From Candidatus Dormiibacterota bacterium (GTDB lineage Bacteria; Chloroflexota; Dormibacteria; CF-121), in the NCBI GenBank assembly GCA_035279665.1, contig DATEHI010000052.1, forward strand, positions 7,939 through 71,938: a stretch of 64,000 nucleotides of DNA, written 5' to 3'. Under the pieces are notes generated by a model. It did not search any database, was not told the origin of the DNA, and worked only from the letters and a program-made list of their open reading frames with translations. Position 1 is the first letter of the stretch. Each line of letters opens with the position of its first letter. The position numbers were made by a program, and so were the translations under genes. Positions 2,894-46,710 of this stretch are shown here, piece after piece.

Positions 2894-7534
<4,641 letters not shown>

Positions 7535-7645
7535 TCTGAGTTACCAACGCTATCGATTGCGGCCGCTTCACGCCACGGACGATTGGTCCAAAAGGATGGC
7601 GTGGCGTCGTACCTTCCGCACAATGGTCGTGCGAGGTCGAGCAGG

Positions 7646-8764: not shown

Positions 8765-10368
8765 GTGACTTTCTCCTTCTGATGGATGGCCGCGTGGAGA
8801 CCGGAGCCGAGATCCTGCAGGAGGATGGCGGCGCAGTTCCGGCCCGGTAGACCGGACACCGACCCGCCCGGATGCGTGCACGCGCCCGTCTGATACAGAC
8901 CGTTGACCGGGGTCCGGTATGACGACCAGCCTTCGACCGGGCGGAAGTAGCCGCTCTGGTCCGGTGTGCTGGCCCCACCATGACACGATCCCCGCCAGTT
9001 CGCCGGATTCCGTCGCTCGAGGTCCAGCGGGCTTTCGACGTGTCGCGCCAGCACGATGCGCTCCGACAGATTCGTGGTCAGCGGCGCCAGCCGCTGGAAC
9101 AGGCGCGTCGCCACCTCCTCCTTGATCGCGTCCCAGTGTGGCGGGCCCTCGGCGAGTTCGTACGGGAGGAAGCTGATCAGCTTGAACGTCTGCTTGCCGG
9201 CGGGCGCGCGGGAGGCATCGACCACGGTTGGCGTGATCGCCAGGTAGACGGGGTCATCGAGCTCGACCCGCCCGGCGCGAAACGCGGTCAACATGCGATG
9301 CAGCGAGTCCAGCGATTCGAGCCCGCCCATCGTCACGCTCTCCAACGACCCGACTTCCGTCTGAAAGCGCGGCGCCTCACTCAACGCATAGTGAGCCACG
9401 AACATCGTCACGCTGGGCTTCCAGCGGGCAATTCCAGCGCGGTACTCGGGCGTGAGGTTCGCCTCTCCCACGATGCCGCTCAGATGCGCGATGTGGATCG
9501 TCGAGACCACGGCCTTCGAGGCGGAATAGCTCGAACCGTCGGCCGTGACGACGCCAGTCGCCCGTCCGCCTTCGACGACGATCCGGGTCACCGGCTTCGA
9601 TGTCAGGATGGCGCCGCCGTGCTCCCCAATGATCCGCGCGAGCGCGATGGGCAGGCGGTTCGAGCCACCCTCGGGCAGGATCCAGCTGAAGCGCTGCCGT
9701 CCCGCCACCAGCGAAAGAGCCAGCAGCCCTGTCTCCGGCTCGTCCAGTGGATGCAGCGTCATGAAGGCGATCCAGGCGAAGAAGGCGCGCACGTGCTCCT
9801 CGGCGAAACGTGCGGTGATGACATCGAGCGCGGTCGCCCGGCGGATGTCCAGCCCGCGCGCGCCGAGCGGCCCTGCCTGCGTCCGCGCCGCGACCTCAGC
9901 AGGTGGTCGGGGCGAGTTTTCCCGCTCGGCGTTCACGATCGGCGAGAGCGACTGCCAATCGGCGAGCAGCTCGCGATAGGCGTCGGCATCCGCACGCGAA
10001 AAGCGAGCCAGCTCCGCACACGTGCGATCGAGGTCGCGCCACATCGTAATGCTGCGGCCGTCGCGGAACGGCATGGTGAACACTGGATCGGGCGACAGGT
10101 AACGCAGCCCGTAGCGGTCGAGTTGCAATTCGTTGTTGCGCATCAACGGGTTGCTCTGGATCAGGTTATGCGCGGTCGCACACGAATCATGGACAAAGCC
10201 CGGCAGCGTGAGTTCCTCGGAGATTGTGTCGCCGCCGATCTGCGCGGCGGCCTCGAGAACCAGTACCTTGAAACCGGCGCGGGCGGCGTAGGCGGCGGTC
10301 AGCAGGCTGTTGTGGCCGGCGCCGGCGACAATGATGTCCCACTCGCCACCGCGGGCGGATACGCTCAA
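8761..10368 (-). CDS. FAD-dependent oxidoreductase (phytoene desaturase/CrtI-like amine oxidase family)
   Basis: N-terminal Rossmann motif DIIVAGAGHNSLLTAAYAARAGFKVLVLEA. The length (535 aa) is typical of CrtI-family flavoproteins. Confidence 0.8.
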   Translation of the reverse strand: MSVSARGGEWDIIVAGAGHNSLLTAAYAARAGFKVLVLEAAAQIGGDTISEELTLPGFVHDSCATAHNLIQSNPLMRNNELQLDRYGLRYLSPDPVFTMPFRDGRSITMWRDLDRTCAELARFSRADADAYRELLADWQSLSPIVNAERENSPRPPAEVAARTQAGPLGARGLDIRRATALDVITARFAEEHVRAFFAWIAFMTLHPLDEPETGLLALSLVAGRQRFSWILPEGGSNRLPIALARIIGEHGGAILTSKPVTRIVVEGGRATGVVTADGSSYSASKAVVSTIHIAHLSGIVGEANLTPEYRAGIARWKPSVTMFVAHYALSEAPRFQTEVGSLESVTMGGLESLDSLHRMLTAFRAGRVELDDPVYLAITPTVVDASRAPAGKQTFKLISFLPYELAEGPPHWDAIKEEVATRLFQRLAPLTTNLSERIVLARHVESPLDLERRNPANWRGSCHGGASTPDQSGYFRPVEGWSSYRTPVNGLYQTGACTHPGGSVSGLPGRNCAAILLQDLGSGLHAAIHQKEKVT

Positions 10369-30577: not shown

Positions 30578-30862
30578 GGGAGTGACTAGTATGCCTCAAG
30601 CGCGGGCTGGCGTGAAGGACCAAAGGAACCAACGACTTTTAGATGGTTTGCACAATAGACTCGGGCGCCTGAGGCTGGTAGCGTTTCGGGTTGAGTCAAC
30701 CGGCGTTGATGGGGATTTACTCACCCCCGGAGCTGGCCGGCTCGACAAGAGCGGCGGCCGTGGCCGCAAGCAGGGTGGTACCGCGGGAGGGGATCCTCTC
30801 GTCCTTGCAGCAGGAACGTGTCGTTCGAGCCAGCCAGCTGCAACGAGGAGGAAGGTACCAAA

Positions 30863-31053
30863 TGGCCAGCTACACCATCGAGATCCCTGACGGGCTGCAC
30901 CACGAGATCCAGGAGCGGCGGCACCAGATCGACGTGGCGGATATCTGCACCCAGGCGCTGACCGCCGCCGTCGCCGGAAGGCCCACCGAGGCCCATCCGT
31001 TCGGGCGCGGACACGAGGTCACCGAAGCGATCAATCGCATGTTCAGTGGTTGA
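30863..31053 (+). CDS. Small ribbon-helix-helix-like protein (63 aa)
   Basis: Strong SD GGAGGA 8 nt upstream of the ATG. MASYTIEIPDGLHHEIQERRH fits the RHH beta-strand plus helix pattern of CopG/antitoxin-like DNA-binding proteins. Immediately upstream of the TPP enzyme gene. Confidence 0.5.
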
Positions 31054-31068
31054 GAGGCGTCGAATCTG

Positions 31069-32865
31069 ATGAGTACTGAAATGATCGACCGCGTCGAGCA
31101 GGAGCTGACACCGTTTGGGCCAGCGCCACTGGAGCGCACCAGCGGCAACTTCTGGCTGATCGAGACGCTGCGGCGCTGGGGCATCACCTCTTACGCGGGT
31201 GTCAACGGTGGTGGCCTCATCCACGTGACCAAGCACCTCGAGCCGTTGTCCGACCCCTCGGAAGCTACCGACGGCGCACCGCGGATGCTGACGATGGGCG
31301 AGTACGTCGCCGGCTTCGTCCCACTCGGCTACTACCTCGCCTCCGGCCGGGTCGCCGGCTGCATCACCACTACCGGCGCCGCCACCAAGTTGGGAGGGAG
31401 CGGTCTGACGGACGCCAAGCTGCACAACATCCCGGCCGTCTATCTGGTCGCCCTCAACTCCACGCTATCGATCGGCCAGGCGCCGCTCCAGGACGTGTCG
31501 GTCCACGGCATGAACATCGTGCCGCAACTCCAGGCGGAGCTAGGTGACGGCTGCATCGTGATCGACGACATCGACACCATGGAGGAGCAGCTCGAGCGGG
31601 CCCAGGCGATCTTGATGGAATCCAAGCCGATCGCCATCGCCTTTTATCCGGACATCCTCTCGAAGGACGTCGAGGTCGACGTGCCCTCACGTCTCCGCCC
31701 CCGCGGCTTTCGACCGCAGGACGTGGAGCGCTTCCTTCAGGACTTTCCACAGATCGCCGACGGGCGCCGGGTCGTCATCTATGTCGGCAGTGAGGCCGCG
31801 CGCTGGCCGGGCATGCCGGCCTTGACCACCCAGCTGTCGGAGTTGCTGCAGGCCCCCACTGTCTGGTCGGTCAACGGGGCCAATGCCGTTTCCCCCGACA
31901 ACCGCTTCGGCTTCGGCTACATCTCCTTCGGCGGCAACGACGAGGCGATGAAGCTCTGGCGAAGTGTCGGTCCCGACGACTGCGTCATCACGCTCGGCTT
32001 CGACCCGGGCGAATATTCCCTCAACCTGGCGACGATACCTGCTGGACAGGTGTGGAACTTCACCGGGTGGACGGAGCAGTACGGCCACATCGCCGGCGAG
32101 TTCCGCCATCGCGTTCGTGGCAACTACGACGTCGTGCACGGGGACCTGGACGCCGTTCTCGAAGAGGTTATTCCGCAGCTCTCGAAGCGTGGCGTCGGCC
32201 GGCGGCCATCGATGGCTGTGCCCGAGCGCCTCAATACGCGCCAGATCTCTCGTGACGTGCGCGAGGGTAGCGTCGACTTCATCCGCTTTTACGAGCAGCT
32301 GCACCAATCGTGGCGGCCGAACAGCATCGGGTTCGACGATGTCTGCATCGCCTACAAGGATCGGCAGTACGTCACCCAGCGACCCCATCCCTGGATTCCG
32401 TTCCACAGTACCCACGACGGGTCGGCGATGGGCGGCGGGTTCGGGCTCGGCGTCGGGGCAAAGATGGCCGACCCGACCCTGCACACCTTCGTCTTCTCCG
32501 GCGACGGCTGCTGGCGCCTGTTCGGCGGCGCGCTGGCCGACGCCGCCAATCTCGACCTGCGGCTCTTCATCATCAACAACGGCGTCTACGGGATCGTCGA
32601 CAAAGGCCTCGAGGTCGTCATCCCCGACGTCGAGAAGCGGCGCTACCATTCGACGCTGCCGACGATCGACTTCGTCGGTGCGGCGAAGGCGCATGGCTGG
32701 GACGGCTACCGGGTGAAGCCGGACTTGAGCAATCTCAAGGAGATCATGGACGCCTGCTACGAGACCTCGGGCCAGTCAATCCTGATCGACGTGCCGGTCG
32801 ACGCCGACCAGGTGATCGGCCTGAACCCTCGGCTGAACAACCTGACGACCAAGACGTACCTCTAA
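31069..32865 (+). CDS. Thiamine-diphosphate-dependent enzyme of the acetolactate synthase/pyruvate oxidase family (divergent; candidate ilvB-equivalent)
   Basis: Three-domain DC-family architecture. C-terminal TPP motif [12 protein letters not shown]...FIINNGVYG. Central GFDPGEYS resembles AlsS IGYDPIEYD. The N-terminal Pyr domain is divergent. The stop overlaps the ilvC ATG (TAATG). Confidence 0.75.
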
Positions 32866-33875
32866 TGGCCAAGGTCTACCACGACGACGACGCCGACATG
32901 GCGGCGCTGGCGGGCCAGCGAGTCGCGGTCATCGGCTACGGCAGCCAGGGCCACGCCCATGCCTTGAACCTGCAGGACAGTGGCGTCGATGTCGTGGTCG
33001 GCCTCTACAAGGGCAGTAAGTCCTGGGAGGCGGCGGAAAAGGAAGACCTGCGGGTCGAGACGGTCGAGAAGGCCGTCGAGCTGGGCAACCTGGTGATGAT
33101 GCTCGTGCCCGATCAGACGCAGAAGCGACTCTACGATGAAGTGGTCAAGCCGAACTTAAAGCCGGGCAGCGCGCTGATGTTCGCGCACGGCTTCAACATC
33201 CACTTCAGCCAGATCCTGCCGGCGGCTGATATCGACGTCACCATGGTCGCGCCCAAAGGGCCCGGCCACATCGTGCGCCGGCTCTTCAAAGAGCGGGTCG
33301 GCGTACCGGCGCTCTTTGCCGTCCACCAGGACACGACCGGCAAGGCGCGCGCCCGCACGCTCGCCTACGCCCGCGGGATCGGCTCGACCATGGCGGGCGT
33401 GCTGGAGACGACGTTCAAAGAGGAGACCGAGACCGACCTCTTCGGTGAGCAGGCGGTCCTCTGTGGTGGACTCACCTCGCTCGTCAAGACCGGCTTCGAC
33501 ACGCTGGTAGAAGCCGGCTACCAGCCGGAGCTCGCCTATTTCGAGTGCCTGCACGAGATGAAGCTGATCGTCGACCTGATGTACCAGGGCGGCATGAGCT
33601 ACATGCGCTACAGCATCAGCGACACCGCCGAGTTCGGCGACTACGTCAGCGGCCCCCGGATCATCAGCCCCGCGGTCCGCGAGGAGATGCGCCAGATCCT
33701 CCGCGAGATCCAGGACGGCACCTTCGCCCGCACCTGGATCCTGGAAAACCAGGCGGGCCGGCCCGCCTTCAACGCCTCCCGGCAGCGCGCCAAGGGCGAG
33801 CTGATCGAGAAGGTCGGCTCGGAGCTGCGCGCCATGATGCCCTGGCTGAAAGCCGACAAGAAGGCCAGCAACTGA
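32865..33875 (+). CDS. ilvC: Ketol-acid reductoisomerase (class I, short form)
   Basis: [22 protein letters not shown] motif and conserved KARI core throughout. Confidence 0.95.
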
Positions 33876-35107
33876 TGGAGGCCCGAGTACCGACACCGAC
33901 GGGCGACCGCGTGTTCATCTTCGATACCACCCTGCGCGACGGCGAGCAATCGCCCGGCGCGTCGCTGACGCCCGATCAGAAGCTCGCGATCGCCTGGCAA
34001 CTCGCTCGCCTGGGCGTCGACGTGATCGAGGCCGGCTTCCCCCTCTCCTCCCCCGGCGATTTTGAGGCGGTGCAACGGATCGCCCGGCAGATTCGAGGCC
34101 CGATGATCACCGCGCTGGCGCGTGCGGCCCGTCCTGACATCGATGCCGTGTGGCAGGCCGTCCAGGATGCCGAGAGAAAGCAGATCCACATGGTGCTCTC
34201 CGTGTCGGACATCCATATCGAGCGGAAGCTTCGCTCCAACCGGCGCGACGTGCTCCGCCGCGGCGTCGAGGCCGTTGCCTATGCGCGCTCGCTGTGCGAC
34301 GACGTCGAGTACTCACCGGAGGATGCGGGCCGCGCCGATCTCGCGTACCTCTTCGAAACGCTCGAGGCGGTGATCGACGCCGGCGCCACGGTCGTCAACA
34401 TTCCCGATACGACCGGTTACACGCTCCCCAACGAGTTCGGGGCGCTGATCGCATCGATCTGCGAGAACGTCCGCAACATCGACCGGGCCTTGATCAGCGT
34501 GCATTGCCACAACGATCTCGGCCTCTCGACCGCGAACAGTATCGCCGCCGTCCTGAATGGCGCTCGCCGGGTCGAGTGCACGATCAACGGCATCGGCGAG
34601 CGGGCCGGCAACGCCTCGCTCGAAGAAGTCGTGATGATCCTCCGCACCCGCGAGAAGTCACTCGGGCTGCGAACCGGGATCGACACCACGCGCCTGGCCG
34701 AGGTCAGCGCGCTGGTCTCGCGACACACCGGCATTCCGGTGCAGCCCAACAAGGCGGTGGTCGGCGGCAACGCTTTTGCGCACGCCTCCGGCATCCACCA
34801 GGACGGGGTCCTCAAGGACAAGCTGAATTACGAAATCATGCGGCCCGAAGAGGTCGGGATGGGAGAAAGCCGGATCGTGCTCTCGCCCCGCTCGGGACGG
34901 CACGCGTTCCAGTTCCGCCTGGGGGAGCTCGGGTATCACTTGTCGGAGGCGGACTTCGGAAGGGCCTGGGAGCTCTTCCTGGAGCTCGCCGACCGCAAGA
35001 AAGACATCCTCGATCGGGACCTGGAGGATATCGTGCGCCGCACACAGTCGCTGGTATCCTCGATTCCTCCCCCTCCGGGGGAGGGCAGGGTGGGGGTGAT
35101 CGCCTGA
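33875..35107 (+). CDS. 2-isopropylmalate synthase / (R)-citramalate synthase family, short form (about 410 aa, no C-terminal LeuA regulatory domain)
   Basis: [15 protein letters not shown] and [21 protein letters not shown] (DRE-TIM metallolyase). The gene ends after the catalytic and subdomain II regions. The C-terminal tail [13 protein letters not shown] is encoded by a palindromic repeat. ATG overlaps the ilvC stop. Confidence 0.85.
35067..35098. repeat. Short GC-rich palindromic repeat, copy 2 (CCCTCC-ggg-GGAGGG with G-rich tail)
   Basis: Seen directly. It is related to 8712..8750 and lies in-frame at the leuA 3' end immediately before the TGATG junction with ilvE. Confidence 0.55.
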
Positions 35108-36096
35108 TGGCCGTCGAGCCCCTGCACCCGTCGGAGACCGCGCCACCCCCGCCCACGAAGGCGATCTATGGCGGCTTTGCCTACTTCAAGGGCGCGATCG
35201 TGCCCTTCGGCGAGGCGAACGTCAGCGTCGGCACCCATGCCCTGAACTACGGCACGGGATGCTTCGAGGGGATTCGCGGGTACTGGAACGCCGAGCAGCA
35301 CGAGATCTATCTCCTGAAATTGGCCGAACATTACGAGCGGTTCCTCAAGTCGACGGCGCTGCTCAAGATCAAGCTCGAGGAGAATGTCGACCAGCTGTGC
35401 GAGCTGACGCGCGAGATCGTCCGCCGTGACGGCTTCCATACGGACGTTTATGTCCGGCCGATTGCCTTCAAGTCCTCCGCCATGATCAAGGTCGATCTTC
35501 ACTCGTCCGAGGATGCGGTCGCGATCTTCGCCATGCCGATGGGGGCCTACGCACGGATCGATGGGTTGCGAGTCACGATCTCCTCCTGGCGGCGGGTCAG
35601 CGACAACAGCATCCCGGCTCGGGCGAAGATCACCGGCGCCTACATCAACACCGCGCTGGCCACCGAAGATGCCAACGCCGCCGGTTACGACGATTGCCTG
35701 ATGCTCACGGAGGACGGTCACATCGCCGAGGGGGCCGCCGCCAACTTCTTCATGGTCCAGGGCAGAACCCTGATCACGCCCCCCGTCACCGACGACATCC
35801 TGGTTGGCATCACCCGGGCCGCGGTGATGGGGCTGGCCCTTGACCTCGACCTCGACGTCGTCGAGCGAAGCATCGACCGGACCGAGGTCTACCAGGCCGA
35901 TGAGGCCTTCCTCTGCGGCACCGGTGTCCAGGTGGCGCCGATCGTCGAGGTCGATGGGCGCGCGGTTGGCAGCGGCCGGCCCGGCACGATCACCATGGGA
36001 CTTCAGGAGGCGTATTTCCGCGCGGTGCGGGGCCAGGACCCGCGCTACCGGCAATGGTGCACCCCCGTTTATGGGGGGATGCCCCGAATTAGGTAG
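35107..36096 (+). CDS. ilvE: Branched-chain amino acid aminotransferase (class IV PLP enzyme)
   Basis: Class IV aminotransferase motifs (FEGIRGY, ITPPVTDDILVGITR, EAFLCGT). Confidence 0.9.
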   Translation: MAVEPLHPSETAPPPPTKAIYGGFAYFKGAIVPFGEANVSVGTHALNYGTGCFEGIRGYWNAEQHEIYLLKLAEHYERFLKSTALLKIKLEENVDQLCELTREIVRRDGFHTDVYVRPIAFKSSAMIKVDLHSSEDAVAIFAMPMGAYARIDGLRVTISSWRRVSDNSIPARAKITGAYINTALATEDANAAGYDDCLMLTEDGHIAEGAAANFFMVQGRTLITPPVTDDILVGITRAAVMGLALDLDLDVVERSIDRTEVYQADEAFLCGTGVQVAPIVEVDGRAVGSGRPGTITMGLQEAYFRAVRGQDPRYRQWCTPVYGGMPRIR

Positions 36097-36152: not shown

Positions 36153-36258
36153 CGGTTATCAAGAGTGGCGGAGGGACCGGCCCAGAGATGCCTGCCAACC
36201 TACCGGAATACCGGCAAGGTGGAAAGTCCGTCAGACGAGAGTCTGAAAGATGATGCAG
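36153..36258 (+). ncRNA. SAM-I riboswitch (S-box leader) aptamer
   Basis: UUAUCAAGAG-UGGCGGAGGGAC-CGGCCC-AGAGAUGCC-UGCCAACC...GGUGGAAAGUCC...GUCAGACGAGAGUCUGA-AAGAUGA aligns to the S-box consensus nearly position for position (for example B. subtilis yitJ: CUUAUCAAGAGAGGUGGAGGGACUGGCCCGAUGAAACCCGGCAACC...GGUGCCAAUUCC...AAAGAUGAG). Confidence 0.8.
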
Positions 36259-36271
36259 TCACGGACGAGAC

Positions 36272-36298
36272 GGCCCCTCCCCGCAGGGGCTTTTTTTA
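36272..36298 (+). terminator. Intrinsic terminator (riboswitch expression platform): GGCCCCUCCCCGCAGGGGC followed by UUUUUUU
   Basis: GC stem with 7-U tract seen directly, 66 nt upstream of the thrC-like start. Confidence 0.75.
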
Positions 36299-36363
36299 TG
36301 GTGAGGCCGCGAGAATGAGCGGCCCCGGCGTGGAAAGGCCGCGAGAAGATCAGGAGGAAATCG

Positions 36364-37608
36364 GTGAAGCAGTTGCGATGTCGGGAGTGCGGACGATTGC
36401 GGGACTTCGAGCCCGCCTACGTCTGCGAGCACTGTTTCGGACCGCTCGAGGTGGCGTACGACCTCGACGCCGTCAGGGAGCGGGTCAGCCACGACTCGAT
36501 CGCGAAAGGACCGAACACCATCTGGCGCTATCGAGAGCTGTTGCCCGCCCCGGACAGCGAGCCCATCGACCTGGGGACGGGCTTCACGCCGTTGGTGCAC
36601 GCCCCCAACCTCGGGAAGGTCCTGGGCCTCGATCATCTCTACCTGAAGAACGACACGGTGAACCCGACCGGCTCGTTCAAGGATCGCAACGTCGCGGTCG
36701 CCACCAACTTCGCGCTCTCCTACGGCTTCGACACGCTCTCCTGCTCCTCCACCGGTAACCTCGCCGGCTCGGTCGCCGCCTACGCGGCGCGCGCGGGAAT
36801 GCGCGCGCTCGTCTTCATTCCCGCCGATCTGGAGCCGGGCAAAGTCGGCGCGGCGAGCGCCTATGGCGCCACCGTGGTCGAGGTCAACGGCACCTACGAC
36901 GACGTCAACCGGCTGTGCGTCGAGCTCGCCGACCTATACGGCTGGGCGATCGTCAACGTCAACCTCCGGCCGTTCTATTCCGAAGGGAGCAAGACGCTGG
37001 CGTTCGAGGTGGTGGAACAGCTCGGCTGGAGGGCGCCCGATCATATCGTCGTTCCCGTCGCCGCAGGGTCCCTGCTCGCCAAGACCGCCAAGGCGTTCCA
37101 GGAACTCTTCGGCGTCGGCCTCGTCGACCGGGTCTCCACGCGGATCCACGCCGCGCAGGCGGAAGGCTGCGCCCCCGTGAGCACGGCCATCAAGGAAGGC
37201 CGCGACCAGGTCACGCCGGTGCGGCCGAATAGCATCGCGAAGTCACTGGCCATCGGCAACCCCGCCGACGGCCGCTACGCGGCACGGGCGGTGCGCGCCT
37301 CGGGAGGGTGGGGTACCGCCTGCCGCGAGGACGCGGTCCAGAAAGCGATGGCACTGCTGGCCGAGACCGAGGGCGTCCTGAGCGAGCCCGCCGGTGGCGT
37401 CGTGGTCGCCGGGCTCGAGGAACTCATCGGGAGCGGGCGCATCCGGCGGGAGGAAACCGTCGTGATCTGCATCACCGGCAACGGCCTGAAGACGACCGAG
37501 CTCTTCGACGTCCGCGATGGGCTCCGGCTGCACCTGGCGAAGCCCCGCGCGTCAGAGTTCGAGAAGGCGCTGGCTGCTGCGGAAAAAGCCCCAGCCGCGG
37601 TCGCATGA
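36364..37608 (+). CDS. Threonine-synthase-family PLP enzyme with N-terminal Cys4 zinc ribbon (ThrC paralog; MetM-like candidate)
   Basis: CRECGRLRDFEPAYVCEHC zinc ribbon, PLP lysine motif PTGSFKDRN and fold-type II core. GTG start. A second canonical thrC exists at 45670..46710. Confidence 0.85.
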   Translation: MKQLRCRECGRLRDFEPAYVCEHCFGPLEVAYDLDAVRERVSHDSIAKGPNTIWRYRELLPAPDSEPIDLGTGFTPLVHAPNLGKVLGLDHLYLKNDTVNPTGSFKDRNVAVATNFALSYGFDTLSCSSTGNLAGSVAAYAARAGMRALVFIPADLEPGKVGAASAYGATVVEVNGTYDDVNRLCVELADLYGWAIVNVNLRPFYSEGSKTLAFEVVEQLGWRAPDHIVVPVAAGSLLAKTAKAFQELFGVGLVDRVSTRIHAAQAEGCAPVSTAIKEGRDQVTPVRPNSIAKSLAIGNPADGRYAARAVRASGGWGTACREDAVQKAMALLAETEGVLSEPAGGVVVAGLEELIGSGRIRREETVVICITGNGLKTTELFDVRDGLRLHLAKPRASEFEKALAAAEKAPAAVA

Positions 37609-38681
37609 CCCAAACGCTCCGGGTCGGAGTCATTGGCGCGACCGGGCTCGCCGGCCAGCAGGTGCTGGCCGCACTGGTCCAGCACCCGTGGTTCACGGTT
37701 GTGGCGGTGGGCGCCTCCGAGAGCTCGGCCGGGAAATCGCTGGACCACGCGCTCCGTGACCCGTCTGGTGCAAGCCGCTGGTTTGCCGAGGGTCATCCCG
37801 ATGGGTCGCTGCTGTCGCTCCGCTGCCTCAACGCTGAGCAACTCCTCGCGCAGCCGCTCGACCTGGTCTTCAGCGCGGTCTCAAAAGAGGTCGCGGAACT
37901 CTGGGAGCCTCGCTTTGCGGAACGGGTGCCCGTGATCAGCACCGCGTCGGCGTTTCGCTATGACCCCGATGTCCCGATCTTGATCCCCGGGATCAACGAC
38001 GCGCATGCCGAAGCGCTGCACGATCAGCGCCGCAACCGCGGCTGGCGCGGCTTCATCGCGCCGATCCCCAACTGCACGACGAGCGGGCTGGCCGTCTCGC
38101 TGAAGCCGCTCCAGGATGCCTTCGGCGTCCGCACCGTGATGATGACCTCGCTCCAGGCCGTCTCGGGCGCGGGCCGGCAGGACGGGGTGCTGGCGCTCGA
38201 CGTGATTGACAACGTCATCCCCTTCATCCCCGGTGAAGAAGAAAAGGTCGAGCGCGAGACGAAGAAGATCCTCGGGCACTGGGGCGAGCCCGCGCAATTT
38301 ACGGTTTCGTGCACCTGCACCAGGGTCAATGTCCAGGACGGACACCTGGAAGCCGTTTACGTTGGGACGGAGCGGCCCTCCGATGCAGCGACGGCCACCG
38401 CCGCGATGGAGCGGTTCGGCGTCGACGGACTCAAAGGTCTCCCCTCGGCGCCCGAACGGCTGCTGCAGGTCAATCCCGACCCCTTCCGACCGCAACCACG
38501 CCGGGACCGCAACGCGGGCGACGGCATGACGGTCACCGTCGGCCGCGTGCGCGACGAGCCCGCGCTCCACGGGGTGAAGTACGTCGTGCTTTCGCACAAC
38601 ACCAAGCTCGGCGCGGGCAAGGGGGCGGTCCTTACGGCTGAATGGCTGACGCGGGAGGGATTTATTGTCAGCAATTCCTGA
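37605..38681 (+). CDS. asd: Aspartate-semialdehyde dehydrogenase
   Basis: MTQTLRVGVIGATGLAGQQVL NAD(P) motif and active-site region IPNCTTSGLAVSLKPL. ATGA overlap with the upstream gene. Confidence 0.9.
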   Translation: MTQTLRVGVIGATGLAGQQVLAALVQHPWFTVVAVGASESSAGKSLDHALRDPSGASRWFAEGHPDGSLLSLRCLNAEQLLAQPLDLVFSAVSKEVAELWEPRFAERVPVISTASAFRYDPDVPILIPGINDAHAEALHDQRRNRGWRGFIAPIPNCTTSGLAVSLKPLQDAFGVRTVMMTSLQAVSGAGRQDGVLALDVIDNVIPFIPGEEEKVERETKKILGHWGEPAQFTVSCTCTRVNVQDGHLEAVYVGTERPSDAATATAAMERFGVDGLKGLPSAPERLLQVNPDPFRPQPRRDRNAGDGMTVTVGRVRDEPALHGVKYVVLSHNTKLGAGKGAVLTAEWLTREGFIVSNS

Positions 38682-39903
38682 GTCCCTCACGCGACCGATC
38701 CTCGTTCAGAAGTTCGGCGGTACGTCGCTCAGTACGCCTGCCCGCATCAAGCGGGCGGCCAAGCGGGTCGCCGCGAGCCGGCGGACGGGCTACGACGTCG
38801 TCGTTGTGGTCAGCGCCATGGGGGACTCGACCGACCACCTGGTGAGCCTGGCGTCGCAGGTCGCGAAAGAGCCGACCGCGCGCGAGCTCGACCTGTTGCT
38901 CTCGACCGGGGAGGGCGTCTCGGCCCCGCTGATGTCGATGGCCCTCAACGAACTGGGCGTGCCGGCCGTCTCTCTCCTCGGCTTCCAGGCGGGCATCCAG
39001 ACCGACCAACGCCACGCGAAGGCTCGCATCGTCGGTCTTACCCCGGGTCGGATCGAGCGCGAGCTGGCCGCCGGGCGGGTCGTCGTGGTTGCCGGCTTCC
39101 AGGGCATGGGCGACGAGATGGAAGTGACCACCCTCGGACGGGGTGGCTCGGACACGACGGCCGTGGCGCTCGCCGCGGCCCTCAAAGCGCAAGCCTGCGA
39201 GATCTTCACCGACGTGCGCGGCATCTACACCGCCGATCCGCGATTCGTTCCGAACGCGCGATTGCTGCCGCACATCGCTTACCCGGAGATGCTCGAGCTG
39301 GCCAGCTCTGGCGCCCAGGTGATGCACCCGCGAGCCGTCGAGATCGCCGAGGCCTACTCGATGGAGCTGCATGTCCGCTCGAGCTTCCACGCGGGGCCGG
39401 GTACCATCATCAGTTCAGAGGCAACGATCATGGAAGAGCGGAATCGCGTAAGGGGCATCGCGCACGAGGAGCACGTCGCCCGGCTCTCCGTGGTCGGCGT
39501 CCCGGATCGGCCCGGCATCGCCGCCGCCATCTTCGCGCCGCTGGCGGAAGCCGACATCGCCGCCGACGTGATCGTGCAGACCGCGAGCCACGAAGGTGTA
39601 ACCGACATGTCGTTCACGGTGTCATCGGCCGACGGCAGGCAGGCCGAGCGCATCGTCCAGGGCGTCGCCAAAGAAATCGGCGCGCGCACGGTGCTCGCGC
39701 AAAACGGCCTCGCCAAGGTCTCCGTGATCGGGAGCGGCATCCGTGGGCAACCTGGCGTGGCGGCGACCATGTTCCGCACGCTGTCGGACCACGGCATCAA
39801 CATCGAGATGATCTCCACGTCGGAGGTGCGCATCACCTGCATCATCGAGGCAAGAAAGGTCAAGGACGCCGTCACGGCTCTGCACGAGGCGTTCAGGCTG
39901 TAG
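38665..39903 (+). CDS. lysC: Aspartate kinase with C-terminal ACT domains
   Basis: LVQKFGGTSL kinase N-terminus and two ACT-like repeats at the C-terminus (LSVVGVPDRPGIAAAIF..., VSVIGSGIRGQPGVAATMF...). TTG start overlaps the asd 3' end. Confidence 0.88.
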   Translation: MSAIPESLTRPILVQKFGGTSLSTPARIKRAAKRVAASRRTGYDVVVVVSAMGDSTDHLVSLASQVAKEPTARELDLLLSTGEGVSAPLMSMALNELGVPAVSLLGFQAGIQTDQRHAKARIVGLTPGRIERELAAGRVVVVAGFQGMGDEMEVTTLGRGGSDTTAVALAAALKAQACEIFTDVRGIYTADPRFVPNARLLPHIAYPEMLELASSGAQVMHPRAVEIAEAYSMELHVRSSFHAGPGTIISSEATIMEERNRVRGIAHEEHVARLSVVGVPDRPGIAAAIFAPLAEADIAADVIVQTASHEGVTDMSFTVSSADGRQAERIVQGVAKEIGARTVLAQNGLAKVSVIGSGIRGQPGVAATMFRTLSDHGINIEMISTSEVRITCIIEARKVKDAVTALHEAFRL

Positions 39904-40817
39904 TGTCCAAAAGCGCCGCGGTGCGGGTCCCGGCATCGTCGGCCAACCTCGGACCGGGCTTCGATGTGCTCGCCCTGGCGCTCGACCTCCACCTCACGCT
40001 CGAGGCGCGCGAGTCGCCGACGACGACGATCACCTGGAAGGGCGAAGGCGCCGGGGAAGTGCCGCTCAACCGCAAGAACCTGATCGTCCGCGCAGCCGAG
40101 GAGCCGTTTGCGGGTTGGAGCCGCCCGCTGAGTGGACTCGAGGTTCGCGTGAAGAACGACATACCGATCGGCCGCGGCCTGGGCAGCAGTGCCGCCGGTA
40201 TCGTCGCGGGGATCACGCTGGGAGCGAAACTGCGCGGCCTGCGAATGCCGGCGCAGCGGCTCCTCGAGCTCGCCATCCCGCTCGAGGGCCATGGTGACAA
40301 CCTGGCAGCCGCGCTCTACGGTGGCTTCTGCATCGCCGTCATCGAAAACGGCGGGGTGCGCGTGCACCGCCTCGACTGGCCAGCCCGCTGGCGGGCCGTC
40401 CTGTTCGTTCCGAACGAAGTATCTCCCACTCACGAGGCCCGCCGCCTGGTGCCGCGCCGTCCAACGCGCGAGGATGCGGTCTTCAATCTTGGCCGGGTCG
40501 CGGAGTGGGTGCTCGCGTGCTCCCAGAAGGACCGCTCGCTGGTCGCTAGCGCGATGGACGACCGGCTGCATCAGCCCGGCCGGGCGCAGGCCTATCCCTA
40601 TCTGGACGACACGATCGCGGCGGCCGAACAGGCGGGGGCCCTGGGGGCGGCGCTCAGCGGCGCGGGCGGCAGTGTCATCGCCGTTGCGGATCGAAACCTG
40701 GCGGCCGTCGGCATGGCGATGATCAGGGCCGCGGGCTTGCACGGAGTCAAGGGGAGTATGGCCATGCTGAGGGCCTCGCCGGCCGGCGCTACCCTGAAAA
40801 AAGACCGGTCCCTGTAA
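39903..40817 (+). CDS. thrB: Homoserine kinase (GHMP kinase family)
   Basis: VPASSANLGPGFDVLALAL and GHMP motif PIGRGLGSSAAGIVAG. GTG start overlapping the lysC stop. Confidence 0.9.
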   Translation: MSKSAAVRVPASSANLGPGFDVLALALDLHLTLEARESPTTTITWKGEGAGEVPLNRKNLIVRAAEEPFAGWSRPLSGLEVRVKNDIPIGRGLGSSAAGIVAGITLGAKLRGLRMPAQRLLELAIPLEGHGDNLAAALYGGFCIAVIENGGVRVHRLDWPARWRAVLFVPNEVSPTHEARRLVPRRPTREDAVFNLGRVAEWVLACSQKDRSLVASAMDDRLHQPGRAQAYPYLDDTIAAAEQAGALGAALSGAGGSVIAVADRNLAAVGMAMIRAAGLHGVKGSMAMLRASPAGATLKKDRSL

Positions 40818-40855: not shown

Positions 40856-41272
40856 GTGGAGACGTGCTTCTCCATGCCTGCGATTTCAGATGAGAAGGAG
40901 GTGAGAAGCATCACTCCAACCCAACGCGTAATCACGATTGTCGGCGTCGCCGGATCGCTCATCGCGGGCGGCGTGATCGGGGCCACACTGGCCGGTCCGC
41001 TGGCGGCCGCGGCGGCGAACACGAGCAATTCGACTCAGCAGATCACGGCAACGGCAGCTCCGAGCGCGAGCGCCGGTACTTTCAAGTCCAACGAGGACGC
41101 GACCCACGAGGCTGGTGAAAGCGCCACCGTCGAGGCCCAGGAGAATTCAGGCCAGCGGCCGGGCGGCGGATCCGGGAAATTCACCCCGAACGAGAACGCG
41201 GCGCACGAGACGACCGAGAGCGCCGCACGCGAAGCACAGGAGAACGCGGGCCAGCGCCCGACCGTTCCCTAA
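40856..41272 (+). CDS. Small secreted/membrane-anchored protein with an internal tandem repeat of about 31 aa
   Basis: N-terminal hydrophobic segment ITIVGVAGSLIAGGVIGATLAGPLAAAAA. Repeats ...NEDATHEAGESATVEAQENSGQRPGG / ...NENAAHETTESAAREAQENAGQRPTVP seen in translation. Confidence 0.45.
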   Translation: METCFSMPAISDEKEVRSITPTQRVITIVGVAGSLIAGGVIGATLAGPLAAAAANTSNSTQQITATAAPSASAGTFKSNEDATHEAGESATVEAQENSGQRPGGGSGKFTPNENAAHETTESAAREAQENAGQRPTVP

Positions 41273-41363: not shown

Positions 41364-41927
41364 ATGGCGGAGATCGTCTCGGACGAAATCGAGATCGCAG
41401 CCCACTGGCCCCTTCCCCGGTTCGGGGTCCACCGGGTCAGGTACGGGATCCCGCTGATGGCGGCTTCCTACCTCGCACTCGTATTGACGGTGGTGCGGTA
41501 TCTTCCGGGCATACACGATCCGCGGCTCCTCTACGGCGTTGCGTTTCCGGTCGTGGCGTGCATCCTGACTACCTGGGGCGCCTCGTACTACGACGGGACG
41601 ACGATCATGGCCAACCGCGACCACGTCACTCTGAAGCGCTGGTGGCGGCGGCCGGCGGTTGTCCCCATCAGCGAGGTCGCTCGGATCGTTCGACTCACCG
41701 TCGATGAGCCTACGAAGAACGGCACGACCCCGAGACCCGCGCTTTTCTTTTTCAATTCCAAGGGCCGCTGCGTCCTCTCGCTGTTCTCGGCTCGTTTTGA
41801 TGATCGCGACCTGGCGCAATTGTGGTCGACCATCGGAATGGAGCCCGAAGGCAGCTTGGACGATCACGTGAAGATCATGAAGCTGGGCGATCGCTTTCCC
41901 GGAGCCTTCGACAAGCCCGCCGCCTAG
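41364..41927 (+). CDS. Hypothetical membrane protein (two TM segments, possible bacterial PH-like domain)
   Basis: ORF with hydrophobic segments LMAASYLALVLTVVRYL and VAFPVVACILTTWGA. ATG at 41364. No recognisable catalytic motif. Confidence 0.45.
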   Translation: MAEIVSDEIEIAAHWPLPRFGVHRVRYGIPLMAASYLALVLTVVRYLPGIHDPRLLYGVAFPVVACILTTWGASYYDGTTIMANRDHVTLKRWWRRPAVVPISEVARIVRLTVDEPTKNGTTPRPALFFFNSKGRCVLSLFSARFDDRDLAQLWSTIGMEPEGSLDDHVKIMKLGDRFPGAFDKPAA

Positions 41928-44611: not shown

Positions 44612-45646
44612 TCATGAGGCTGCAGGATACGGGTTCTTTGGTCCGAGCGGCGCGACCGCCGTCAGCGGCATGTCCGCCAGGCTCGCGAGCAGCGAGCCCG
44701 CTGACGCGGGCACATCCCTTGCCGCCCGTAACAGATCGGCGAGCACCGCGCTCGCGGCGGCGTCCGGGCCGGCCCCCGGCCCTTCAAAGGTGAGCGGCCC
44801 GGCGTATTCGGCGTCGAGGCTGATCGCATTCATCGCGCCATGGACGCGCGCCATCGGCGCAGCCGCGGGGACCAGTCGTGGACGGACGTCGGCCTCGATA
44901 GAGGCATCGTCGTGGATCGTCGCCGCCGCGAGTAGCTTGATGACGAATCCACGCCCGCGTGCCGCCTCGACCTGCACCGGATCGACGCCACGAATCCCGA
45001 CCCGATCAATCTGGGAGGGATCGATGCGGCGCCGAAAGGCCAGCATCACGAGGATGGCAAGCTTGGCGGCCGGGTCATGCCCATCGACGTCGGCGCTCGG
45101 ATCGGCCTCGGCGAGGCCGCGGCGCTGAGCGTCCGCGAGGGCTTCCGCATAGGTCGCCCCGCCGTCAATCGCGGCGAGGATCGAGTTGGTCGTGCCGTTG
45201 AGGATGCCCATGATCGAGCGGATCCGGTCCGCGCCGAGCGTGTCGGCCAGGGTTTCGACGATCGGGATCGCGCTGGCGACGGAGGCCTCGAACCGAATCG
45301 GCCCGAGTCGCGCCAGCTGCGGCCCTTCCGCGGCGATCAACTGCTTGTTGGCCGTAATCACCTGGCGGCCTGCCTGGAGCGCCGTATGTATATAGGTATG
45401 CGCCGGTTCCAGGCCGCCCATCACCTCGACGACGGCATCGAGCTGTGGCTGGGCCAGCAATTGCGCGGCGGGGAGCAATGGTGCCGGTGCGCGCCGGCCC
45501 TGAGGGTGCGCCACCGCAATGGCTTCCAGCTGGATCGGCCGGCCGGCGGCCTGCGTGATCCGATCGGCATCCTCCACCAACCGTCGCGCCAGCGCTCCGC
45601 CGACGTGGCCAAGGCCGAGCAGCCCAACGCGATACGGGGCACGCAT
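44612..45646 (-). CDS. hom: Homoserine dehydrogenase (no C-terminal ACT domain)
   Basis: VGLLGLGHVGGALARRL NAD-binding motif, catalytic-domain motifs and ANKQL. 344 aa. Confidence 0.88.
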   Translation of the reverse strand: MRAPYRVGLLGLGHVGGALARRLVEDADRITQAAGRPIQLEAIAVAHPQGRRAPAPLLPAAQLLAQPQLDAVVEVMGGLEPAHTYIHTALQAGRQVITANKQLIAAEGPQLARLGPIRFEASVASAIPIVETLADTLGADRIRSIMGILNGTTNSILAAIDGGATYAEALADAQRRGLAEADPSADVDGHDPAAKLAILVMLAFRRRIDPSQIDRVGIRGVDPVQVEAARGRGFVIKLLAAATIHDDASIEADVRPRLVPAAAPMARVHGAMNAISLDAEYAGPLTFEGPGAGPDAAASAVLADLLRAARDVPASAGSLLASLADMPLTAVAPLGPKNPYPAAS

Positions 45647-45669: not shown

Positions 45670-46710
45670 ATGACCGCCGGCATCATCGAGCGCTACGCGG
45701 CGTATCTGCCGGTTACCCCGTCGACCCCCCGCATCACGCTTGGTGAGGGGTCGACACCACTAGTCCGGTCGTCGAGGATAGGCCCGGCGATCGGGCTCGA
45801 CCAGCTCTATTTCAAATGCGAGGGCCTGAATCCGAGCGGGTCGTTCAAGGACCGCGGGATGGCGCTCGCCACGGCCAGGGCGATCGAGGCCGGGTCCCGA
45901 ACGCTGATGTGCGCCTCGACCGGGAACACGAGCGCCTCTGCGTCGGCCTATGCCGCCCGCTTTGGTCTGCGCGCGGTCGTGGTCGTGCCCGCCGGAGGCG
46001 TCGCCGCCGGAAAACTGGCGCAGGCACTCGCCTATGGCGCGATCATCGTGACCGTCAAGGGATCGTTCGACCGCGCGCTGACCCTTGTGCGCAAGCTGGC
46101 GGACGAACCTACTGTCACCCTGGTGAACTCGGTCAACCCCTATCGCATCGAGGGTCAGAAGACAGCGGCCTTCGAGATCATCGAACAGCTGGGCCGCCCA
46201 CCGGCACAGCTCTTCATTCCGGTGGGCAACGCCGGCAACATCACCGCCTACTGGCGCGGGTTTCGCGAGCTCGCCGGCCGCAGTACCGCGTCACTCCCGA
46301 CGCTGCACGGCGCGCAGGCCAAGGGAGCGGCGCCGCTGGTCCGCGGACGGCCGGTGGCACGGCCGCAGACGGTCGCGTCCGCGATTCGGATCGGCAACCC
46401 CGCCTCCTGGAGCGCCGCCATTGCGGCACGTGACGAGTCGGGCGGCACGATCGAAGCCGTCAGCGACGACGAGATCATCGCGGCGCAGCGACGGCTGGCG
46501 CGCGAAGAAGGTCTGCTGGTCGAGCCGGCATCAGCGGCCGCCGTGGCCCTTTTGCTGAAAAGGGCGCCCGCCGGAACCCTGGGCGACGAGCCGGTTGTTT
46601 GCGTGCTTACCGGTCATGGGCTCAAGGATCCGCAGGCCCTGACTCGTGGCTCACGAGTGCCTCGGCCCGTTGAGCCGACGCTCAAGGCGCTGCGACGCGC
46701 GATCGGCTAA
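45670..46710 (+). CDS. thrC: Threonine synthase (canonical short actinobacterial/Bacillus type)
   Basis: Near-colinear with M. tuberculosis ThrC (EGLNPSGSFKDRGMALA..., CASTGNTSASASAYAAR, VNSVNPYRIEGQKTAAFEI, VGNAGNITAYW, LTGHGLKDP). Confidence 0.95.
   Translation: MTAGIIERYAAYLPVTPSTPRITLGEGSTPLVRSSRIGPAIGLDQLYFKCEGLNPSGSFKDRGMALATARAIEAGSRTLMCASTGNTSASASAYAARFGLRAVVVVPAGGVAAGKLAQALAYGAIIVTVKGSFDRALTLVRKLADEPTVTLVNSVNPYRIEGQKTAAFEIIEQLGRPPAQLFIPVGNAGNITAYWRGFRELAGRSTASLPTLHGAQAKGAAPLVRGRPVARPQTVASAIRIGNPASWSAAIAARDESGGTIEAVSDDEIIAAQRRLAREEGLLVEPASAAAVALLLKRAPAGTLGDEPVVCVLTGHGLKDPQALTRGSRVPRPVEPTLKALRRAIG

Follow-up and report, generated by a model that had tools for sequence, protein, structure and literature searches.

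The 64-kb stretch of Dormibacterota DNA analysed here (the window) carries two genes of the threonine synthase (ThrC) family within 10 kb of each other, and raises the question of whether the first of them, beginning at 36364, encodes a second threonine synthase or an enzyme of methionine biosynthesis. Dormibacterota are an uncultured phylum, widespread in soil. The initial annotation had proposed a functional divergence of the first gene towards methionine or other O-phospho-amino-acid chemistry, and the sequence-level evidence compiled here points the same way: a SAM-I riboswitch, a homoserine kinase gene (thrB) in the same operon, and a clade linked to MetO-like sulfur carriers (Table 1). 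The gene probably encodes a MetM-type, O-phosphohomoserine-dependent homocysteine synthase, first in a SAM-riboswitch-gated operon, with a carrier thiocarboxylate as sulfur donor by analogy. The first description of the MetM route to methionine dates only from 2024 (Hasebe 2024, as relayed by citing papers including PMC12172450); in the MetM/MetO system of S. albulus, O-phosphohomoserine and a carrier thiocarboxylate are reported to yield homocysteine (Hasebe 2024, through passages of PMC12172450, bioRxiv 10.1101/2024.10.14.618325 and bioRxiv 10.64898/2026.09.15.751699).

Table 1. Features of the metM-like locus and related genes, in window coordinates.
Feature	Position	Strand	Basis and remarks
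SAM-I riboswitch aptamer (S-box, RF00162)	36153..36256	+	61.8 bits vs gathering score 44.4, E 6e-12, full model 1-108
Intrinsic terminator, riboswitch expression platform	36272..36298	+	hairpin GGCCCCTCCCCGCAGGGGCT then TTTTTTT; GC-rich
Shine-Dalgarno-like AGGAGG	36352..36357	+	6 nt before the GTG of the metM-like gene; read from the sequence
metM-like ThrC homolog	36364..37608	+	414 aa; ORF, family matches, clade placement, signature residues, ThrC fold
Four-cysteine zinc-ribbon motif codons (C6, C9, C21, C24)	36379..36435	+	sequence and conservation; predicted metal site
PLP-binding lysine codon K106 (motif SFKDRN)	36679..36681	+	invariant in 20-homolog alignment; aligns with SFKDR lysine of solved threonine synthases
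asd, aspartate-semialdehyde dehydrogenase (asd_EA type)	37605..38681	+	TIGR00978 327 bits; NF006416 345 bits
ask, aspartate kinase, two ACT domains	38665..39903	+	NF005155 544 bits; 17-nt overlap with asd end
thrB, homoserine kinase	39903..40817	+	TIGR00191 235 bits vs cutoff 168; 1-nt overlap with ask stop
hom, homoserine dehydrogenase	44612..45646	-	NF004976 333 bits; supplies homoserine to thrB
thrC, canonical threonine synthase, outside the operon	45670..46710	+	346 aa; TIGR00260 288 bits

Both ThrC-family proteins, recognized as such from the outset, matched Pfam PALP (244 bits for the metM-like protein and 267 bits for the thrC product) and the thrC equivalog TIGR00260 (269.9 bits for the metM-like protein, against a cutoff of 167.1), and in the NCBI records of a 'Candidatus Dormibacteraeota bacterium' MAG both are named threonine synthase (HKV30532.1, HKV30542.1). 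They share 41% identity over 327 residues. The thrC product aligned along its whole length to threonine synthases of solved structure (345-396 bits), and the near-colinearity with mycobacterial ThrC that had been pointed out was confirmed with M. tuberculosis 2D1F (345 bits, residues 4-337 against 14-351). The metM-like gene, which starts with GTG, encodes a PLP enzyme with the threonine synthase fold; its nearest solved structures were threonine synthases without exception, with alignments of 189-199 bits from residue ~50 onward only, and its matches to cysteine synthase families were weak. Its AlphaFold2 model (mean pLDDT 82.8) also matched ThrC structures.

The TIGR00260 score, the identity of the closest structures and the NCBI name all favour a true second threonine synthase, an isozyme with a zinc ribbon, for which the SAM riboswitch would tune flux through the shared aspartate pathway. 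In addition, passages of PMC12172450 describe a cyanobacterial family member that formed some threonine in vitro and acted mainly as a threonine synthase/deaminase, not as a clear MetM. This isozyme reading is nevertheless very unlikely, given the profile scores, the phylogeny, the pocket residues and the regulation. TIGR00260 is unable to discriminate MetM-type proteins from ThrC, because MetO-linked homologs scored between 247 and 341 bits, and on the PRK08197-type profile NF006050 the metM-like protein reached 302 bits, just below the cutoff of 303, with true members at 330-365. A full canonical thrC lies 8 kb away, and canonical thrC genes also accompany metM-like genes in four other loci (L028, L036, L037, L042), so that the two paralogs are not redundant copies. 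Moreover, SAM repression of a threonine synthase would have no evident regulatory logic.

The placement of the protein was examined in a homolog scan of one genome per GTDB species, which returned 80 homologs with 52-58% identity to the metM-like protein, except for a Dormibacter locus at 82%. In the phylogeny, which is neighbour-joining only and from which the S. albulus MetM sequence is absent, the Dormibacterota clade grouped with MetO-linked proteins, apart from canonical ThrC and from PRK08197-type proteins, in 100/100 bootstraps, and fell inside the MetO-linked crown in 81/100. Signature positions, defined by at least 90% conservation among MetO-linked proteins and a difference from ThrC, pointed to the same family, with 59 of the 65 present in the metM-like protein. 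Its pocket segment reads R-P-F-Y-S-E-G-S-K-T where ThrC has N-P-Y-R-I-E-G-Q-K-T, and the ThrC pocket motif N-P-[YF]-R-x-E-G-Q-K-T was not found in it upon alignment to the solved enzymes. The Dormibacterota clade also has substitutions of its own, namely N109 near the catalytic lysine (V in the family), A234 and P342.

Two local features had been taken as signs of divergence. The lysine motif is indeed S-F-K106-D-R-N in the metM-like protein and S-F-K-D-R-G in the thrC product, but the N is peculiar to the Dormibacterota clade, the consensus of the MetM family being SFKDRV. The N-terminus carries C6-R-E-C9 ... C21-E-H-C24. In an alignment of 20 homologs with identities as low as 40%, C6, C9 and C21 do not vary, and C24 shows at least 90% conservation. 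AlphaFold2 placed three short beta-strands there (residues 3-6, 12-14 and 27-31, pLDDT about 80), a model compatible with a zinc ribbon and predicted metal binding. The cysteines of the archaeal-type ribbon in the initial annotation are present and conserved, but the motif is not specific to archaea: it occurs in archaeal ThrC profiles and also in the bacterial ThrC-like sister group of PRK08197 type, and alignments to the zinc-ribbon ThrC-like profiles begin at residues 2-4 of the metM-like protein. Because that sister group of ThrC-like proteins carries it too, the ribbon is not diagnostic, and its proposed use as a mark separating the metM-like protein from real threonine synthases was not upheld.

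Upstream of the metM-like gene, an aptamer scoring above the gathering threshold, the sole Rfam match across the 64 kb, is followed by an intrinsic terminator and then by the gene, and SAM binding is predicted. In the minimum free energy fold, the 5' arm of the terminator pairs with the GGAGGG of the aptamer, which suggests a possible antiterminator. Relatives were surveyed with a core-motif regular expression, and with Rfam on subsets; a custom covariance model was set aside, as the four aptamers on which it was based aligned poorly (MAFFT) in the 3' half. The same aptamer was found in the same place in L002 and L006 (Rfam), where the terminator hairpin and T-run are kept with differences in the loop only, and the SAM-I core motif in L001 and L087-L092 (regular expression). 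In all, RF00162 was detected upstream of metM-like homologs in 19 loci besides the window, and further loci showed the core motif alone. The riboswitch, the terminator and the operon, the most informative features of the locus, were absent from the initial annotation.

The ATG of asd overlaps the stop codon of the metM-like gene (ATGA), which is translationally coupled to the genes for aspartate-semialdehyde dehydrogenase, aspartate kinase and homoserine kinase. O-phosphohomoserine is the product of homoserine kinase, and thrB is the only homoserine kinase gene found in the window. Following pathway logic, a homoserine kinase under SAM control would make sense only if O-phosphohomoserine feeds methionine. 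The four-gene operon would cover the route from aspartate to O-phosphohomoserine except for homoserine dehydrogenase, whose gene lies about 4 kb downstream of the operon end on the opposite strand. The metM-like-asd-ask order, with or without thrB, is repeated in L001, L002 and L087-L092 with an aptamer or core motif upstream, and in L006, which has the SAM-I aptamer, about 3 kb separates the metM-like gene from asd-ask. This insert was ruled out as a set of sulfur genes, as it contains hemA, hemL and a LysE exporter. A foreign origin of the locus was likewise rejected: GC content is level over the whole window (about 0.64-0.70), and thus nothing suggests a foreign island. The metM-asd-ask-thrB layout is unusual and new for metM-type loci.

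SAM control would be compatible with any step towards methionine, and the PALP fold is known for many beta- and gamma-replacement reactions, so the enzyme might catalyse another gamma-replacement or an elimination, with O-phosphohomoserine or a similar compound as substrate, for example forming cystathionine from cysteine or another SAM-related metabolite; the clade-specific N109 could alter the choice of nucleophile. No cystathionine beta-lyase or other partner gene was found in the operon, however, and both the phylogeny and the signature residues place the protein in the MetO-linked clade, which makes such a reaction a distant prospect.

In the favoured MetM-type reading, the enzyme would swap the phosphate of O-phospho-L-homoserine for sulfur and release L-homocysteine, the immediate precursor of methionine. 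With abundant S-adenosylmethionine, the aptamer would fold, the downstream terminator would form and the operon would be switched off. By analogy with MetM/MetO of S. albulus, the sulfur would probably be donated by a small MoaD/ThiS-like carrier through its C-terminal thiocarboxylate, the carrier gene lying in another part of the genome.

The distribution of such carriers was followed across loci. A MoaD/ThiS-like gene lies downstream of the metM-like gene, on the same strand, in 71 of the 80 homolog loci, and encodes a protein of roughly 91 aa ending in AGG-Gly-Gly. SAM-I riboswitch, metM-like gene and MetO-like gene occurred together in 11 loci. One of these 11 SAM-I/metM/metO-type loci is that of the actinomycete Nonomuraea gerenzanensis, whose metM-like protein is 52% identical to that of the window; it came from a tblastn search of a plasmid collection that lists this chromosome among its plasmids. 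Searches for a Streptomyces metM locus among representatives, through clusters and with a second round of homologs led no further than Micromonosporaceae. Among Dormibacterota-type loci, no MetO-like, ThiF/MoeZ-like or Mec-like gene was detected, either across the 64 kb of the window or up to 10 kb from the metM-like gene on nine related contigs. A MetO HMM relaxed to E 1-10 had no match in the window, L001, L002, L006 or L087-L092; it matched 71 of 80 other loci. A six-frame scan of the window for small GG-ending ORFs gave no MetO candidate. A protein-database search with a MetO profile had no Dormibacterota label among its best 120 matches, a result that carries no weight either way. Three ORFs were considered and rejected: 37633-37935 as MetO, as it is nested in asd in a different frame and matches no family, and 40874-41272 and 41364-41927, after thrB, as sulfur partners, as neither has a family match; one of these last two encodes a low-complexity repeat membrane protein.

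In 71 of 80 other genomes the carrier gene neighbours the metM-like gene, whereas none of the Dormibacterota-type loci examined has it or a ThiF-type gene. This pattern would suit an enzyme of the same family and product that uses free sulfide or a donor other than MetO, that is, a one-enzyme O-phosphohomoserine sulfhydrylase. The substitutions specific to the clade around the active site (A234, P342 and, next to the PLP lysine, N109) fit this as well, and Na2S is reported to have mimicked MetM activity in vitro (passages of PMC12172450). However, little can be concluded for a whole genome from roughly 20-64 kb of flanking sequence, and adjacent carrier genes are also missing for the Micromonosporaceae and Anaerolineae homologs; in the Anaerolineae operons, an activating enzyme of the ThiF family implies that a carrier gene lies at some other site. 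Since the metM-like protein also retains 59/65 family signature positions, the use of sulfide or another donor is considered unlikely. It is equally doubtful that the Dormibacterota clade defined by N109, A234 and P342 runs a carrier-independent O-phosphohomoserine route using sulfide directly, with ask, asd and thrB behind one SAM riboswitch; if true, O-phosphohomoserine would, as in plants, be the committed precursor of methionine under SAM regulation, and making threonine would require a homoserine kinase that SAM represses. The cyanobacterial result, the three clade-specific residues and the missing local carrier genes were counted against the MetM-type reading.

The enzyme class being known from 2024, what is new here is most likely a MetM-type locus in Dormibacterota together with the layout SAM riboswitch-metM-asd-ask-thrB. 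MetM-type genes are annotated nearly everywhere as "threonine synthase", and no MetM-specific model was present among the NCBIfam matches of the metM-like protein. Because MetM-type proteins pass the cutoff of the thrC equivalog and no MetM-specific match exists, metabolic reconstructions of Dormibacterota would miss this methionine pathway or show a gap. In genomes, MetM may be told from ThrC by a simple rule: a SAM-I leader, a neighbouring MetO or ThiF gene, and RPFYSEGS instead of NPYRIEGQ. The locus also raises the question of how threonine is supplied when SAM silences an operon containing the only homoserine kinase found in the window.

Compared with known systems, the locus most resembles metM of S. 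albulus, for which an upstream SAM riboswitch and a metM/metO arrangement are reported (Hasebe 2024, as cited in PMC12172450). According to these citing papers and to gene context, rather than to the S. albulus sequence itself, both are ThrC-homologous PLP enzymes with an upstream SAM riboswitch and O-phosphohomoserine as the logical substrate. Within the same limits of the source, the Dormibacterota locus differs in having no metO nearby or in the 64 kb, in being joined with asd, ask and thrB, in its host phylum, and in the residue after SFKDR, which is N instead of V.

Canonical class-II threonine synthases (Aquifex 2ZSJ, B. subtilis 6CGQ/6NMX, T. thermophilus 1UIM, M. tuberculosis 2D1F) share the fold, the SFKDR motif and the presumed substrate with the metM-like protein, at 36-39% identity over residues ~50-380. 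In contrast to them, it has an extra N-terminal four-cysteine ribbon of ~50 residues, RPFYSEGS for NPYRIEGQ and differences at the 65 family-specific positions, and its gene is under SAM rather than threonine-related control, with a true thrC in the same window. PRK08197-type proteins (NF006050) and the archaeal profiles PRK05638, PRK08329 and PRK06450 have the CxxC...CxxC ribbon and the overall length in common with it, but the PRK08197 type forms a separate clade (100/100 bootstraps) and differs at R202, Y205, K240, K293 and T377.

In the CysM/CysO/Mec system of Mycobacterium tuberculosis, cysteine is made from O-phosphoserine and CysO-thiocarboxylate. The logic is that of MetM, in that a PALP-fold enzyme displaces the phosphate of an O-phospho-amino acid with the thiocarboxylate of a MoaD-like carrier, and the MetO-like proteins of the homolog loci resemble CysO (91 aa, ...PAVAGG). 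The MetM substrate is one carbon longer than that of CysM, and the reaction would therefore be a gamma- and not a beta-replacement; unlike CysM, the metM-like protein belongs to the ThrC branch and not to the CysK/CysM branch. In plants, cystathionine gamma-synthase uses O-phosphohomoserine, the branch point of threonine and methionine (bioRxiv 10.64898/2026.09.15.751699). The plant enzyme has a different fold and forms cystathionine, and SAM there activates threonine synthase, with no riboswitch involved. In plants, and as proposed for this locus, threonine and methionine both derive from O-phosphohomoserine, and two enzymes would therefore compete for it.

The ThrC-like gene upstream of the canonical thrC (hereafter the query) is best read as a member of the MetM homocysteine-synthase family of threonine-synthase homologs (described in 2024), one that extends the family to a new phylum and operon layout. 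It is predicted to be under SAM-I riboswitch control together with the genes supplying its substrate. Both ThrC-family genes of the window, whose products shared 41% identity, were named "threonine synthase" by NCBI (exact protein look-up, Candidatus Dormibacteraeota MAG), and GC content was uniform over the window. The canonical ThrC aligned colinearly over its full length with solved threonine synthases, including M. tuberculosis 2D1F (345-396 bits), whereas the query reached only 189-199 bits against the same structures, from residue ~50 onwards. The profile search matched the query to Pfam PALP (244 bits) and to several models of threonine synthase; its N-terminus has C6-x-x-C9 plus C21-x-x-C24, and its PLP-lysine motif is SFK106DRN. 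The initial annotation, which had reported two ThrC-family genes, an N-terminal CxxC...CxxC, SFKDRN versus SFKDRG, and colinearity of the 45670 copy with mycobacterial ThrC, was therefore right in each stated detail.

Coordinates of the features described in the window
Feature	Position	Strand	Description
DUF222-domain protein	1108-2523	+	66.8 bits
Long ORF	2894-7534	-	1546 codons
Short conserved ORF	30862-31053	+	63 codons, no Pfam match
ilvB-ilvC-leuA-like-ilvE operon	31069-36096		
SAM-I (S-box) aptamer, complete	36153-36256		Rfam 61.8 bits (gathering score 44.4), E 6e-12
Terminator	36272-36298		GC-rich hairpin and seven-T run (terminator scan), sixteen bases 3' of aptamer
ThrC-like gene (query)	36364-37608	+	GTG start six bases past AGGAGG; 414 residues
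Predicted membrane-anchored protein	40874-41272	+	132 aa, no family match
hom	44612-45646	-	
Canonical thrC	45670-46710	+	346 aa, SFKDRG

The SAM-I aptamer, the sole Rfam match across the whole window, lay 108 nt upstream of the query start codon. The terminator hairpin and T-run were kept in two related contigs, with sequence changes in the loop only. When the entire leader was folded at minimum energy, the GGAGGG of the aptamer base-paired with the hairpin's 5' arm, a pairing that would act as an antiterminator. The leader has the standard anatomy of a predicted SAM "off" switch acting through transcription termination.

Downstream, the query stop codon overlapped the start of the aspartate-semialdehyde dehydrogenase gene asd (ATGA), asd overlapped the aspartate kinase gene (ask) by 17 nt, and ask overlapped the homoserine kinase gene (thrB) by one base. 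The ThrC-like-asd-ask order, with or without thrB, was found again in eight related Dormibacterota-type contigs (L001, L002, L087-L092), with a SAM-I aptamer or its core motif upstream. The ninth relative, L006 (Candidatus Dormibacter), also possessed the aptamer, with the ThrC-like gene and asd-ask ~3 kb apart; hemA, hemL and a LysE-type exporter (6741-9822) split the operon there. Homoserine kinase produces O-phosphohomoserine, and by pathway logic its control by SAM would make regulatory sense only with O-phosphohomoserine as a methionine precursor here. The divergent hom (homoserine dehydrogenase) and canonical thrC lay about 4-5 kb past the operon end. Their start codons were just 23 bp apart, so both promoters would have to fall within the neighbouring coding region; in L087 and L088, leuB directly followed hom, with no thrC at that spot.

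The 63-codon ORF, just upstream of the ilv operon as in L001 (4499-4690), L002 (4587-4778) and L087 (4555-4746), could encode a leader peptide or else a regulatory subunit of very small size. The membrane-anchored protein contained two copies of a ~30-residue repeat (…NEDATHEAGESATVEAQENSGQRPG… and …NENAAHETTESAAREAQENAGQRPT…); an ORF of equal length (132 aa), likewise without family match, was called in L002. The 1546-codon ORF may be gltB, by analogy with the 1543-aa glutamate synthase adjoining thrB in L089 and L090.

A neighbour-joining tree was built from 118 sequences, and its groupings were assessed in 100 bootstrap replicates. The Dormibacterota clade fell among carrier-linked proteins, i.e. 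those with an adjacent gene for a MetO-like sulfur carrier, between the actinobacterial and Chloroflexota groups (nested within the carrier-linked crown in 81/100 bootstraps). Together they were set apart from canonical ThrC (100/100) and from a sister zinc-ribbon ThrC-like group, the true NCBIfam PRK08197 members (100/100). Against the PRK08197 model (NF006050, cutoff 303), PRK08197-type proteins scored 330-365 bits and MetM-type proteins, including the query, 270-311 bits. Of 65 positions that differ from ThrC and show at least 90% conservation among carrier-linked proteins, the query possessed 59; its six departures (L34, H43, N109, I196, A234, P342) were common to its own clade. Position 109, beside the PLP lysine and noticed initially, was N in the query, V in the family consensus and G in ThrC. 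Residues 202-211 read R-P-F-Y-S-E-G-S-K-T in the query and family versus N-P-Y-R-I-E-G-Q-K-T in threonine synthases, where the Arg of N-P-Y-R presumably contacts the substrate phosphate (Thermus and Aquifex structures).

The query is unlikely to be a genuine second threonine synthase, because it is placed apart from ThrC in the phylogeny, its pocket residues differ, it is predicted to be controlled by SAM, and a canonical thrC co-exists with it. A cyanobacterial family member was nevertheless reported to act mainly as a threonine synthase/deaminase in vitro (PMC12172450), therefore the MetM reading calls for some caution. The earlier suggestion of a methionine-related function is supported by the SAM-I leader, the homoserine kinase in the operon and the placement in the carrier-linked clade.

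The ribbon cysteines (three invariant, the fourth at least 90% conserved) were common to PRK08197-type proteins and archaeal ThrC profiles; the putative zinc ribbon marks a larger ThrC-family branch rather than MetM function. An AlphaFold2 model (pLDDT 82.8) placed three short strands at this segment. The best PDB matches were class-II threonine synthases (~330 residues aligned, 36-39% identity), none covering the N-terminal ribbon segment.

Close homologs (78-92% identity) were all from soil metagenomes and all named threonine synthase, and the nearest 50%-identity cluster representatives were 54-50% identical to the query. One of these belonged to Micromonosporaceae; its Actinoplanes and Micromonospora relatives were stand-alone genes with SAM-I riboswitches upstream. 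Scanning GTDB with a single genome for each species gave 80 loci (52-58% identity, save a Dormibacter locus at 82%) in Chloroflexota, Cyanobacteria, Acidimicrobiia, Nitrospirota, Verrucomicrobiota, Planctomycetota and others, of which 71 had a downstream, same-strand MoaD/ThiS-like gene of ~91 residues ending in ...PAVAGG. In eleven loci, SAM-I riboswitch, ThrC-like gene and carrier gene occurred together, among them that of the actinomycete Nonomuraea gerenzanensis (52% identity). In L036, L037, L042 (Nitrospirota) and L028 (Chloroflexi), metM-like, MetO-like and canonical thrC genes lay within a few kb, with aspartate kinase nearby; L028 had a T-box leader (104 bits) just 3' of the MetO-like gene. 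Carrier-linked MetM-type proteins scored 247-341 bits against TIGR00260 (thrC 'equivalog'; cutoff 167) and no MetM-specific model was among the NCBIfam matches; automatic annotation will therefore label the family as threonine synthase in many phyla.

Neither the 64-kb window nor the 10 kb around the gene on the nine related contigs contained a MetO-like, ThiF/MoeZ-like or JAMM/Mec-like gene. A missing adjacent carrier gene is not in itself evidence that no carrier is used: the Micromonosporaceae homologs likewise lack one. Two Anaerolineae loci lacking a neighbouring carrier gene had a ThiF-family activating enzyme and aspartate kinase inside the same SAM-riboswitch operon, implying a carrier encoded elsewhere. 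Direct sulfide use by the Dormibacterota clade is the main rival reading and the less probable one. In L008 (6664-9540) and L035 (5899-8485), where the carrier gene is not adjacent, the SAM-I operon continued after the metM-like gene with a ThiF-family (MoeZ-like) gene and aspartate kinase; the metM-aspartate kinase linkage therefore recurs outside Dormibacterota. In the Anaerolineae genome of L035 (4470-5921, +, and 5418-5517), the SAM-riboswitch operon comprised, in this order, metM-like, MttB-family methyltransferase, ThiF-family and aspartate kinase genes, with an Rfam PYLIS_3 match within the MttB gene; such a SAM-controlled methyltransferase may point to a step that donates methyl groups in the making of methionine.

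The locus represents no novel type of system; the MetM assignment is of value because it corrects a misannotation that is systematic and raises the sulfur-donor question. Secondary sources on Streptomyces albulus describe MetM as a homolog of threonine synthase, "often misannotated" under that name, which makes homocysteine from O-phospho-L-homoserine with the thiocarboxylate of MetO, a sulfur carrier loaded and matured by MoeZ and Mec; a SAM riboswitch precedes metM (PMC12172450; bioRxiv 10.1101/2024.10.14.618325; bioRxiv 10.64898/2026.09.15.751699). As described there, S. albulus metM/metO has the same SAM riboswitch/metM/carrier arrangement as the eleven loci found here.
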